NCBI GenBank assembly: GCA_012295275.1
Contig: CM022667.1
Location: 15,190,001 to 15,254,000, forward strand
Origin: Chrysomallon squamiferum
Lineage: Eukaryota > Animalia > Mollusca
Reading direction: 5' to 3'
Length of the DNA stretch: 64,000 bases
A program made the position numbers and the translations under genes. The notes beneath the pieces were generated by a model. The model searched no databases. It was not told where the DNA came from and saw nothing but the letters and a program-made list of their open reading frames with translations. Below are positions 2,560 to 7,459 of the stretch, in pieces; position 1 is the stretch's first letter, and each line of letters opens with the position of its first letter.

Positions 2560-5500
2560 ATCATGAAACGCTGATAGAATCTGATGGCGCCTCGGCGGGT
2601 ACGATCTTCCTCACAGAAGGGTCTCACATCTGCGACGGGCACCACTCGTTCGACAAGCACTACGACAACGACGACTCCTTCGCCGACAGCTGCATCGACT
2701 TCGACGAGGAGCACTGCAGAGCGCCGCCGCTTCAGGACCTCTACCGCTACCACGTCTTCTTCTCCCACTGCGCGGCCGACCTCGACTGGGTCAAGGACAC
2801 GGTGAAGAAGCTGCAAGCGACGCCGTTCTGCTACAAGTGCTACTACCTCTGCGAGAAGTTCAACAGGCGCCTCAGCATTGTGCAGAACCTGCTGTGCGCG
2901 GTCATGCTCAGCGAGCGGGTGGTGCTCGTTCTCACGAAGAAGTACCTCGAGGAGACGTGGCCGGACTTCCTCGACATGCTCAAGAGCCTGACGATGACGA
3001 GCCTGCACAAGCAGCGCATGCTGGTCGTTCTCCTCGAGGAGTGCGAGGTCCCCGAGCAGCTCGAGCAGTTCGGCTTCATCGACGCCAAAGATCCCGATTT
3101 CTTTCAGGTCTTCACCAACAGATTGAAAAGTGGTGAGTTAGAACGGATGGATTGATACGCGTTATTATTATTATTATTATTATTATTATTATTGTTGTTG
3201 TTGTTGTTGTTGTTTCGTTATCAAGGTGTTGATTAAGAAAATTATAAATATTCTTCTTATATTTCATGCGACTGTAGTTGTTTTTATTTATTTATTTATT
3301 TTTATTTTATTTTGTTGGGGGTGTTTGTTATTATTACTATTATCATCGTCATCATCAAATGATTATCGTCATTATCATTGTTGCTGTTGTCTTTCTCGTT
3401 TTAATAATAATAATAATAATAATAATAATAATAATAATAAAATAATATTAATAATATTATCGTCATCATCAACATCATCGTTATCATTTTTATTATTATT
3501 ATTATTATTATTATTATTATTATTATTATTATTATTAGGGCGTCTTCCACGAAGTAGTCAGTCAATCAGCAGTGATCTGGCGGCAGTTCTTTCATCTAGG
3601 GCAAGTGAGACTCTTTACTTAACTTCAATATTGTATGAGCTAAGCAACGTTTTTTTTTCTCCAATCTAATCTATTGTACAGTAGCTTAGCTAGCGTAATG
3701 TGATCTTTAATCATATATAGGTTTTTCTTTATATTCTCTGAAAATCTAATTATAATACCCAAGGTGATGCGAAAGAATAGTCTATAATTTGTCGCTAATC
3801 TTTACTACTAATAAAGTATTGCTATAAAATAACAAACGTATGGAAATCATGTTGGTTATTTTTATTTATTTATTTATTTATTTTTGTATCTAAAAGTAAA
3901 TGAATAGTTTGAGTAAATTATTGCTAAGTATTTTTTTTTTTCTCCTACGTCATTTAAAGATTTTATTTTTAACTTTCGTTCTGTAAAATGACATCGGGAA
4001 AGATTATGTTACATGGATCGTCACAAATTTGCTACATTATTGTTAACAAATTTATTGTCAGAAACCATTAAAATAGTTGATTTGTCTTTTATAAAATGTA
4101 TTTGAGTTGTTTATTCATTGTACTAAAGTGAAATGTTTATTAACTTACTTTCTTCTTCTTCTTCTTTTAACTAAATAATTATTATTCAGTATATACAAAC
4201 AAATATGATTAATGATACCTCATTTGTCTTAAGTTCTTAATCCTGAAGATTAGTAGGTATTTATTACCTACAATCATCAAAAATGAATAGATTTCCGATT
4301 TTCTCTCTAAGGTTATCATACATTAATGATGGGCGTTAACAAGATTTAATTCTATTAACAACCTTCGTGGTATTGACTTGTTCACTTCTATAATTATTTT
4401 AGCTTTAAAGTTTATTCATCAATTTTGTAATATTATTTTCTAGATCTGTCTAATGGTCACGTGTTAGCAACCGTTACCTTGGAGATCCGTGGTTACTGGA
4501 GATCGAGCCTAGTTATTGCTGCTCACAACGAAGAGATTCCCACTGCCTTAAGATGGCACGGTGTAAACGTGAGTTCCAGAAATGTTGTCACGTGCACTTG
4601 TTTTATAGATTATAAGGCTTTACCGATTTGACGTGGATCAGTTCGAAGTGATACAATAAAGATGCCACATTGATGCTTATTCTTTTTAATTACTAAAGTC
4701 TCCTTCGTATCCCTATACACTGAAATGCATATCGTATTGGACAAGCTTTTCGCGATATTCTGGACACAAGAAGAAATAGTCCAGTAGGGACAGGAATGTC
4801 GTTTAATCCCAAGACCTCTAGCTTGCAGTTTAATCTTCCAATTAATTCCTAATGAATAGCAAATAAACATAAAGACTACTCTGTAACATCAGTGATGAAT
4901 ATACAATATAAAAATATATTATATGTTCAGTTATATACTATGTAGTTCTGCGTTTCTTCAGATGAGTCAAGAGGAATACTGGGATCTGGTTCAAACTATA
5001 GCAGAAGCTAACAACGGAACATCACAGCTGCCTTGGATTTTCAGCCTCCAACCCGTACTAGTTCTGTTGTCTGCGTTTGGGATGTGGACTTTAGCTTTCA
5101 TCATCGTCATCGTAGTACTGGTGGACGATTCAACTGGAGGTCGGTTTTAGATAATTGTTTTATAATAAAAATAAAATTGTGTATTTACTAAACATCTCTC
5201 TCCTTACCTCTCGCAGTGCCTCTCTCCGTATGACTGTCTGATTCTGTCTGTCTTTGACTCTGTCTGTCTGTCTGTTTCTCTCTCTCTCTCTCTCTCTCTC
5301 TCTCTCTCTCTCTCTCTCTCTCTCTCTCTCTCTCTCTCTCTCTCTCTCTCTTTCTCCGACACTAAAATTTGTCTCTGTTGTCCTCTCTCTATGTTTCTCT
5401 AAAACAATCTAGCGTGTGCGAGAGTACACACGTGTGGTTTAAATAACTAAACTGTAAAGTAAAATAAAACTGAACGTTTATATCTATTTTCAGACGTGTT

Positions 5501-7459
5501 ACCTATACGACTTGTAGTTTTTATATTTCCTGTTATTCTTGTCACTTTTCTTTACGGAATTCGCTGGAGAAGGAGGCGTTTAAAAAGAAAGGTAAATATA
5601 ATCTAATTAGGACTAAATTCTTTACTCTACTCGTCCTTTCCAGCAGCCGAAAACATACTATAGCAGTATTCCGACTGACCGCTGAGTAGACTAGACTAAT
5701 CGGTGACAAAGAAAGCTTTACTTTTAACCATTTCTACTACCACTACTGTTCTAATAGTAATAACACTGCTAATAAAACTAGTACTAATGTTGTTACTGCT
5801 ACTACTACTACCACTACTGCTCCTACCACTACCAATACTGCTGCCGTGGTACTCTATCTAGTATTATTCTTTACTTGATTTGTTGTTACGATAACTGAGT
5901 TATATACTGAAACCATTATATATTTGAACCATGTTCCCACGGTGTATGCACATATACACACAATAACGTATGCATCTGTTATACATTTAGTATACCTCTA
6001 ATACTATGTTTAAAAATAATGTCTTGCTAATAAAAGTAAACAGCCAGTATCTTATGTTTCAGATATCAAGACAGCTTCTTCTACAGTGTGTTCACATCAA
6101 TAAACAATTTTACACAGACGACCGTCCATTGTTGGTTACAGCTGCTCACAGCAAGGGAGATAACTTTAACGTATCCTTGAAAACAACATATTGTTAATTA
6201 TCGTTCTTAGCATAGTTTTCTTCTTTTTCTAAAAACTTAATTTTATCTCTTTTTTATTTATATTGATTGATTCATTCATTTATTTTGTATCATAATAATA
6301 ATACGACGGTTTTGATATTACTATATATCATCATATCATCATCATCTTATCATTGTCATCATCACAATCATCATCATCGTTGTATTTTCTAGTTAAATCA
6401 AATGAATGAGTTGGTTTTAACTATTTATTTATTTTCCTTTACATTTGCACCAGCTTCATTTTATATATTTCAATATAGCTGATTGTCTGGTAAGACAAGT
6501 TTATTTAGTTAGAAATACTTTTTAAATTATAGTTTATATATATAAATTGTGTTGTTTAATTAATGAAGCAAACAGAGAGAGACAGAGAGAGAGAGAGAGA
6601 GAGAGAGAGAGAGAGAGAGAGAGAGAGAGAGAGAGAGAGAGAGAGAGAGAGAGAGAGAGAGAGAGAGAGAGAGAGAGAGAGAATGATCGGTCTATAATAC
6701 TAATTTTAATATTTAATGTATGTATGTGTAATATAATGATATTTTTATGTTGTGTCGTCACTTTCAGAATGACGTAAATCTTCTGATATGTAGCTGTTTG
6801 AGCGAGGATGCTGACAAGTTAATACAGCTTATCCAGTTCTATACTCACGACGTCAACTACTTGAGTCAGGTAAAATAAATAAATAGTATAAAAACTGAGT
6901 ACAGAAAGAAAGATAGAGAGAAAAGGTAAAGTAAAGCCGTTCATTGTCATCATATAGGACTCTGTCTGTGGACTTTTAAAATTTATTTCTGTCTATCCAT
7001 CCATCCTTTTAACAATTCATCCATTAATTCATCTGTCGATCCTTCATTCGTCCATTCCTCAATCTACCTGCAAAATACCTATATCATACTCTTTCCATTC
7101 ATTGCCGTATGCATGATTCTATTTATTCTATTTCATAAGTGAAATATCTGTATCAACGAACTGACGTATCTTACCCTTCTGTTCAGGTTTCTCTGGCAGA
7201 ACGACTCACAGTGATGATGGCAGCACCATACGCTCTGAAACTCGCCTGCTTTCTTCTGCCGTACTCGGCACAGGAACGTCACACGAGCAAACTGCTCTGC
7301 CTTTGTCAGTTCACCGAGGAATGCGTGTCGTCCTTCATACATTTCTACGCCAAGGAGGACATATCTGGTCTCACACACCTGTTTTCTTTCAATCTTTTCT
7401 GTGCGACGTCTTCCAAAGAAATACGAACGATCTTTGATAACACGTTACCACCCGTATGA
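2560..7459 (+). CDS. TIR-domain / TMEM268-like two-TM fusion protein, 5'-incomplete; exons 2560-3132, 3539-3604, 4444-4568, 4962-5139, 5494-5591, 6063-6170, 6454-6489, 6768-6869, 7187-7459 (~518 aa plus unidentified first exon)
   Basis: All junctions have AG/GT and keep one open frame (1557 nt of whole codons including stop). The first exon gives TIR motifs YRYHVFFSHCAADLDWV...SIVQNL...SERVVLVLT...MLVVLLEECEVP. Later exons give NGHVLA, two hydrophobic segments, LHFIYFNIADC and LAERL...YALKL...RHT...CLCQFTE, recalled as resembling TMEM268 (NGQVL, FVYFDLENC, RHT..PCPCQLIE). The start-codon exon was not found. Confidence 0.8.
5276..5356. repeat. (CT)n microsatellite
   Basis: Direct reading; intronic. 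Confidence 0.95.
6171..6453 (+). other. Probable U12-type (minor spliceosome) GT-AG intron
   Basis: 5' site GTATCCTTG (U12 consensus GTATCCTTT). Branch-like TTCCTTTAC at 6434-6442, 11 nt before the end of CAG, with no polypyrimidine tract between. Splicing preserves the frame. Confidence 0.8.
6574..6682. repeat. (GA)n microsatellite
   Basis: Direct reading; intronic. Confidence 0.95.

Follow-up and report, generated by a model that had tools for sequence, protein, structure and literature searches.

Within 64,000 nucleotides of the Chrysomallon squamiferum genome (contig CM022667.1 of assembly GCA_012295275.1, positions 15,190,001 to 15,254,000 of the forward strand; the window), one gene joins an N-terminal TIR (Toll/interleukin-1 receptor) domain to a two-helix membrane protein related to TMEM268. 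This TIR-TMEM268-type gene is real, conserved in molluscs, and uncharacterized, and it represents a variant TIR protein rather than a new system. Nine GT-AG exons between 2560 and 7459 (+) splice to a single frame that stays open for 518 codons and then ends in a stop. The exons and the TIR domain are as follows.

2560..3132, +, exon A: phase-1 start, AG/GT ends; acidic N-terminal segment and the entire TIR domain
2754..3092, +, TIR_2 domain: RDxxPG missing from the BB loop; Leu where NADase TIRs have Glu on alphaC
3539..3604, +, exon B: low-confidence linker from the TIR to the membrane module; 87% to Gigantopelta by tblastn
4444..4568, +, exon C: start of the DUF4481-like module, with the NG motif, first strand, and P-x2-L-x3-G motif
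4962..5139, +, exon D: predicted membrane helix 1 (about 5061-5117)
5494..5591, +, exon E: predicted membrane helix 2 (about 5496-5552) and a basic stretch (5565-5591)
6063..6170, +, exon F: predicted long cytosolic helix with a conserved Asn, then a strand
6454..6489, +, micro-exon G (36 nt): conserved F-x-Y strand and near-invariant Cys393
6768..6869, +, exon H: helical portion of the C-terminal domain; 80% to Gigantopelta by tblastn
7187..7459, +, last exon: stop codon; His460, Cys466, and Cys468 at 7280-7306

An earlier model with eight exons already had GT-AG junctions throughout and a single frame. Alignment of orthologues to it left 12 residues missing, which are supplied by the micro-exon, itself bounded by AG and GT. 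When the Gigantopelta and Haliotis orthologues were searched against the window by tblastn, they marked seven and eight of the nine exons, respectively, in order and all nine jointly; no second copy of the gene was found in the window by the same searches. The product of exon A is 83% identical to the Gigantopelta aegis protein, its best homologue. Exon A opens in phase 1 with no start codon, and two scans of positions 1-2560 for a short ATG exon ending in G before GT gave none, so coding probably begins in an exon upstream of the window. Beyond the start of exon A, the Gigantopelta protein has about four further N-terminal residues and the Haliotis protein about thirty. Sequencing run X1 covers the TIR exon with one contig that continues into the intron, and X1 is therefore DNA; its six differences all fall on third codon positions (five silent, one Asp to Glu). 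Runs X2-X4 gave zero coverage of the TIR exon. The window is AT-rich (26 to 38% GC per 2 kb) and rich in microsatellites, and an antisense open reading frame (ORF) at 2556-3137 (193 codons), together with an overlapping frame of 183 codons, was taken as a shadow of the GC-rich exon. Weak Pfam matches of the helix exons to Hol_Tox and DUF4079 were set aside as generic.

The union of TIR and tail is evidenced by homologues in other molluscs. When longer proteins were sought with the TIR exon as query, 26 of 559 candidates matched, and 11 of these, from gastropods, bivalves, and cephalopods, align from TIR to tail in one high-scoring segment pair (HSP): Gigantopelta (71%), Haliotis (59%), Physella (49%), Pomacea (46%), Pecten (45%), two Mytilus proteins, Pinctada, two Octopus proteins, and one Logan protein. 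Full-length identity, which reaches 71% over 520 columns for Gigantopelta, 59% for Haliotis, and 37 to 49% for bivalves, cephalopods, and other snails, excludes chance. Of the other 15 homologues, one needs two HSPs to be matched in full, four extend partway into the membrane region, and the remaining ten match over the TIR alone. TIR-only and tail-only models in some snails would fit two neighboring genes, one TIR-only and one TMEM268-like, merged by gene prediction. We give this explanation very little credence: the introns concerned measure just 406 and 839 bases, the phases match, the linker exon is conserved, one-piece homologues are present in molluscs of three classes as well as in a nemertean, an annelid, and amphioxus, and transcript-sized contigs hold the entire ORF. 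Logan protein P0022 (563 aa), a cluster-mate of a cuttlefish protein, is encoded by 102 contigs, none longer than 2,798 bases, and P0035 (579 aa) by a contig of 1,892 bases; ORFs of this length on such short contigs would imply spliced mRNA. In Nucella, the TIR and tail halves are on adjacent locus tags (043893 and 043892), which reads as a split annotation, so some annotations divide the gene.

Two side observations concern copies and models of the family. ENA contigs of 12.5, 14.2, and 23 kb (P0083, P0106, and P0097) hold whole TIR+DUF4481 ORFs (583 and 582 aa) in one piece, apparently intron-free copies; P0097 is closely paralogous to P0106 but TIR-less or truncated. Also, the ankyrin-repeat models P0056 (Haliotis) and P0064 contain a piece of 40 to 50 residues that matches exon F and are probably misjoined.

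By profile comparison, the tail is homologous to DUF4481/TMEM268. With hhalign, a profile of 11 mollusc tails matched five fish TMEM268 proteins with a probability of 95.6% in local mode and, over 241 columns, 97.9% in global mode, while 30 shuffled controls reached a maximum of 3.5%. A six-row mollusc tail profile matched 87 proteins among 1.84 billion. Of 25 proteins scanned (22 of the 87 plus three others), eight have both TIR_2 and DUF4481, including those of Babylonia, Saccostrea, Lineus, Capitella (DUF4481 E 4.4e-22), and Branchiostoma (E 3e-16, labelled TLR2). One TIR-less match to the profile is the TMEM268 of Erpetoichthys, a named TMEM268 at E 1.2e-5. DUF4481 scores of the orthologues range from none to 26.5 bits. 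In Atlas, the Haliotis tail found TMEM268 clusters as its top three matches (0.84-0.86), and the amphioxus protein found a mollusc cluster of 84 (TIR_2 in 99%, DUF4481 in 13%), a mollusc cluster of 54, a chordate cluster of 83 (TM 0.61, 340 residues), and TMEM268 (TM 0.58, 231 residues); the clusters of 84, 54, and 83 members indicate that further, larger paralogous groups exist. Atlas also returned a fungal (Mucoromycota) cluster of 226 aa with no Pfam family, at 0.81 to the tail, a lead for a nonanimal relative of DUF4481.

TMEM268 (C9orf91, PF14800) and the snail tail share, in co-linear order, the NG motif, P-x2-L-x3-G, two membrane helices, the F-x-Y...C strand, and an H-x5-7-C-x-C-Q tail (H-x5-C-x-C-Q in the snail). 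His460, Cys466, and Cys468 are each conserved in all 26 rows, those of fish TMEM268 among them, and Cys393 is present in 24 of 26; judged from this conservation, the three residues and Cys393 likely form a zinc site. Two intron positions are also held in common: in two fish TMEM268 isoform pairs, a skipped exon of 54 residues ends where the snail gene has the intron that follows its basic stretch, and in a third pair an isoform boundary lies within one codon of the intron that follows exon C. Identity is about 20%. TMEM268 differs in lacking a TIR (absent in five of five fish TMEM268-family proteins) and in a longer insert before the tail, whereas the snail protein has about 45 extra C-terminal residues.

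These results bear out much of an initial annotation of the locus made from the DNA letters. It had recognized a TIR followed by two membrane helices in one spliced frame, as the nine exons, the TIR_2 score, and the hydropathy peaks described below confirm; its WRRRRLKRK and RHT...CLCQF motifs are where it placed them. It had assigned the tail to TMEM268 from motif similarity, an assignment that profile comparison now substantiates, and had stated that vertebrate TMEM268 carries no TIR, which holds for the fish proteins. As to the spread of the architecture, molluscs, a nemertean, an annelid, and amphioxus have it; no cnidarian was seen among the matches that could be named, most being unnamed.

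Exon A matches Pfam PF13676 (TIR_2) at 38.9 bits (E 1.4e-9), above the curated cut-off of 28 bits, and encodes a TIR fold; the TIR is the most conserved part of the protein. Among solved structures, the best sequence match is MAL (E 4.5e-4), a weak match tied with TLRs. The Box 2 BB-loop motif RDxxPG is found in none of 11 mollusc rows, is present in amphioxus, and is partial in three other rows. The W+4 position, which we take to be that of the catalytic Glu of NADase TIRs, is Leu in the snail protein; in the 28 of 33 rows that could be parsed, it is Glu in 16, Gln in ten, Leu in one, and Arg in one. Because amphioxus retains a full ERDFTPG loop and the Glu, a typical Toll-like receptor (TLR)-type TIR appears to be the family's original. 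With the BB loop lost in molluscs and the Glu lost in the snail protein, the classical adaptor and the enzyme are both weakened as explanations. Box 2 is typical of the TIRs of TLRs, the interleukin-1 receptor (IL-1R), MAL, and MyD88 and is used in MAL filaments (PMC7075850). The leucine-rich repeat (LRR) or immunoglobulin (Ig) ectodomain that marks TLR and IL-1R was found neither in the exons nor in the 26 homologues, and in place of their single membrane helix and C-terminal TIR, the TIR precedes two helices. Similarly, no N-terminal death domain of the MyD88 kind was found in the 26 homologues, full-length ones included, the snail protein's own first exon being missing from the model.

Kyte-Doolittle hydropathy peaks at residues 288-306 (2.63) and 315-333 (2.62). 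The eight-residue loop between the helices has no Lys or Arg and three Asp or Glu, and eight Lys or Arg fall in the 15 residues after helix 2. At the same threshold, 14 of 20 family rows have at least two peaks and five have one, with none in amphioxus. A structural model of an orthologue presents a helical hairpin in which helix 2 continues into a long helix; the order of elements is strand, helix, two membrane helices, long helix, and two strands, and the linker (residues 228-244, matching exon B) has a pLDDT below 50. A topology with the TIR and the tail on the same side, as the initial annotation had proposed, agrees with the hydropathy, with the positive-inside rule, and with the hairpin of the model: both are predicted to be cytosolic, with the eight-residue loop alone outside and no ligand-binding ectodomain. 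Fold searches with the full model against three solved-structure sets returned TIR-like rows only, and a viral library gave none under E 0.001. Tail profiles against the sequences of solved structures gave only chance or generic membrane-helix matches and no GCP16/Erf4. Over 46 proteins, 32 Pfam families were found, and the 25 that were listed do not include Erf4.

In a tree of tails (25 rows, with ENA318 left out), the snail protein stands beside Gigantopelta in a mollusc+nemertean clade (100/99) that tracks the mollusc classes. The deep branches are open, and the test does not reject grouping the TIR-less rows as one clade (p-AU 0.135). An earlier tree, in which three rows were untrimmed, joined fish TMEM268 to amphioxus at 93/89; the idea taken from it, that vertebrate TMEM268 arose by loss of the TIR, was dropped, and the cleaner tree leaves this point open. 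A word-based search for TIR-less invertebrate TMEM268 returned nine proteins, of which eight are from fish or fish-like. The tail is tied to TMEM268 by homology, probably as a paralogue. Of the link between TMEM268 and TIR signaling that had been suggested, then, the homology of the tail stands, while the tree gives no sign that TMEM268 itself derives from, or works with, a TIR fusion.

The closest known proteins are uncharacterized TIR_2+DUF4481 proteins with the same domain order (Mytilus LOC143054136, Lineus LOC135487228, Capitella CAPTEDRAFT_228275, and Branchiostoma CAH1271011, misnamed TLR2), and within their mollusc+nemertean clade the snail gene represents the gastropods. The amphioxus protein differs in keeping the RDFxPG loop and the Glu; in the mollusc clade, the loop is lost. 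MAL/TIRAP and TRAM resemble the snail protein in bringing a TLR-type TIR to the membrane without an ectodomain. They place a lipid-binding region or lipid anchor ahead of the TIR, which is C-terminal and keeps Box 2 intact; the snail protein, in contrast, has an N-terminal TIR, a helix-hairpin anchor, a folded C-terminal domain, and no Box 2. It is set apart from the TLR and IL-1R families by the lack of an LRR/Ig ectodomain, by two helices instead of one, and by the N-terminal TIR. GCP16/GOLGA7 and Erf4 have a similar order of secondary structure, with two membrane-associated helices in the same place, but no sequence or Pfam match to them was seen, and the snail protein differs in its full-membrane-length helices, extra C-terminal Cys/His domain, and TIR. 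The ecTIR-DC families of Gerdol et al. 2017 (PMID 28109746) are likewise TIR proteins spread across invertebrates, with no function assigned, and were surveyed in bivalves, a group in which the snail-type gene occurs; families 3, 5, 6, 8, 11, 14, and 15, as described in citing papers, have other architectures. Gerdol et al. 2017 reportedly classified bivalve TIR proteins and may list the TIR-TMEM268 family under another number. No description of the architecture was found in the literature searched, a search that did not extend to that survey, and the pair PF14800+PF13676 already appears in the precomputed annotation of a Mytilus protein.

What is known of TMEM268 offers a basis for thinking about function. 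TMEM268 has DUF4481 and two transmembrane segments, at 104-126 and 130-152, is found both in the endoplasmic reticulum and at the plasma membrane, and stabilizes ITGB4 through residues 104-342 (PMC6748091). It also protects CD11b from lysosomal degradation (PMC11169502); there, a link to TLR signaling is the authors' hypothesis only, and the word "TIR" is absent from that text. By analogy, we tentatively favor, with confidence somewhat short of even, a membrane-tethered TIR regulator that would bind Toll-type receptors or adaptors and control their stability or damp their signaling, rather than a receptor or an enzyme. The tail would bind the tails of membrane proteins and prevent their degradation, as vertebrate TMEM268 does for integrins, and the TIR would direct this stabilizing or routing activity to TIR-bearing partners. 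Lacking a BB loop, the TIR could join a TIR assembly without extending it and thus cap the signal instead of relaying it. Several observations weigh against this proposal. Loss of the BB loop could equally mean that the TIR no longer binds TIRs, and the Glu at the NADase position is retained in 16 of 28 parsed rows. The topology is based on hydropathy and a model whose pTM of 0.60 leaves domain packing open, and the snail protein has no Lys or Arg before helix 1. Ten of the 26 homologues are TIR only, and three snail models are tail only. Moreover, DUF4481 (PF14800) matches none of the six tail exons scanned exon by exon and is likewise missed in the proteins of Gigantopelta and Haliotis; with E values as high as 0.1 allowed, it is found in only six of 26 homologues, one of which reaches the cut-off, and a fish-TMEM268 hidden Markov model scores the spliced tail at 1.6 bits (E 0.0075).

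The degenerate BB loop of all 11 mollusc rows would also suit a protein that is mainly a TMEM268-like housekeeping membrane cofactor, either an integrin stabilizer or a GCP16/Erf4-like accessory of a DHHC palmitoyl-transferase, with the TIR as a nonimmune protein-binding module. The family forms a single well-supported clade along the mollusc classes, not an expansion of the immune type, and the element order of the model fits the description of GCP16/Erf4 (10.1101/2022.12.12.520165). The GCP16 likeness is one of element order only, however, the amphioxus loop and Glu point to an ancestral TIR of typical TLR type, and the TIR is the most conserved part; we regard this explanation as doubtful, though deserving of attention. 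The initial annotation had read the protein as a distinct membrane-anchored innate-immune adaptor. Its membrane-anchored architecture stands, and the adaptor role is weakened by mollusc TIRs without a Box-2 BB loop. A positive sorting adaptor like MAL/TIRAP or TRAM, held by a two-helix anchor and nucleating MyD88 on activated TLRs, would accord with the MAL match, with a membrane anchor and a cytosolic TIR as predicted, and with an Aplysia survey in which no MAL, TRIF, or TRAM orthologue is reported (PMC9334734), which would leave the role vacant. Such an adaptor nonetheless seems unlikely to us, as the match is weak and tied with TLRs and the Box 2 of TLR, IL-1R, MAL, and MyD88 TIRs (PMC7075850) is absent from 11 of 11 mollusc rows. 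Improbable too, and much more so, is a membrane-bound TIR NADase effector of the SARM1 or TIR-STING kind, activated by clustering of the membrane module: the 16 rows with Glu would suit it, and W+4 is Leu in the snail protein, Gln in ten others, and Arg in one. TLR TIRs also keep this Glu, and we know of none that is an NADase, which we count against an enzyme.

In a bolder and rather unlikely scheme, an old bilaterian TIR family would use a GCP16/Erf4-like, zinc-binding TMEM268 module to couple TIR signaling to receptor palmitoylation or turnover. In molluscs, the TIR would have become a cap without a BB loop that brakes a greatly expanded TLR repertoire, and vertebrate TMEM268 would be the TIR-less sister of this regulator.

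The architecture broadens the textbook set of TIR proteins (receptor, MyD88-type adaptor, SARM1, and TIR-STING) by a predicted combination of N-terminal TIR, helix hairpin, and cytosolic Cys/His domain. The family is kept in gastropods, bivalves, and cephalopods, with relatives in worms and amphioxus, and its annotations read "uncharacterized" or, mistakenly, TLR2. It is a candidate membrane TIR regulator in animals with large TLR repertoires and no recognized MAL or TRAM. For TMEM268, the subject of two functional papers, it offers a clue from domain fusion, along with four invariant residues that are candidate metal ligands.

Elsewhere in the window are seven long stop-free frames and a transposon fragment.

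11866-13302, +, stop-free frame
14771-15181, +, Tc1/mariner-type transposase fragment (HTH_Tnp_Tc3_2, E 1.2e-6)
18739-20172, +, stop-free frame
27492-28970, +, stop-free frame
39163-40773, -, stop-free frame
47127-48767, -, stop-free frame
54240-55745, -, stop-free frame
63424-63999, -, stop-free frame

The stop-free frames have 478 to 547 codons, the last being cut by the window end, and look like a tandem array of paralogs, the first three of which are clearly alike. Five of them were scanned against Pfam without a match, and one gave a weak match only. Upstream of the frame at 11866 are a PAN-like exon (10467-10847, E 0.015) and an EGF-like exon (11629-11862, E 0.012-0.04); they suggest secreted PAN-EGF proteins with an unnamed large domain. 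Finally, a short GC-richer stretch holds, at 132-141, the palindrome TCTCGCGAGA, presumably a housekeeping promoter motif of the BANP/ZBTB33 type, which may mark the promoter of the TIR-TMEM268 gene or of an upstream gene.

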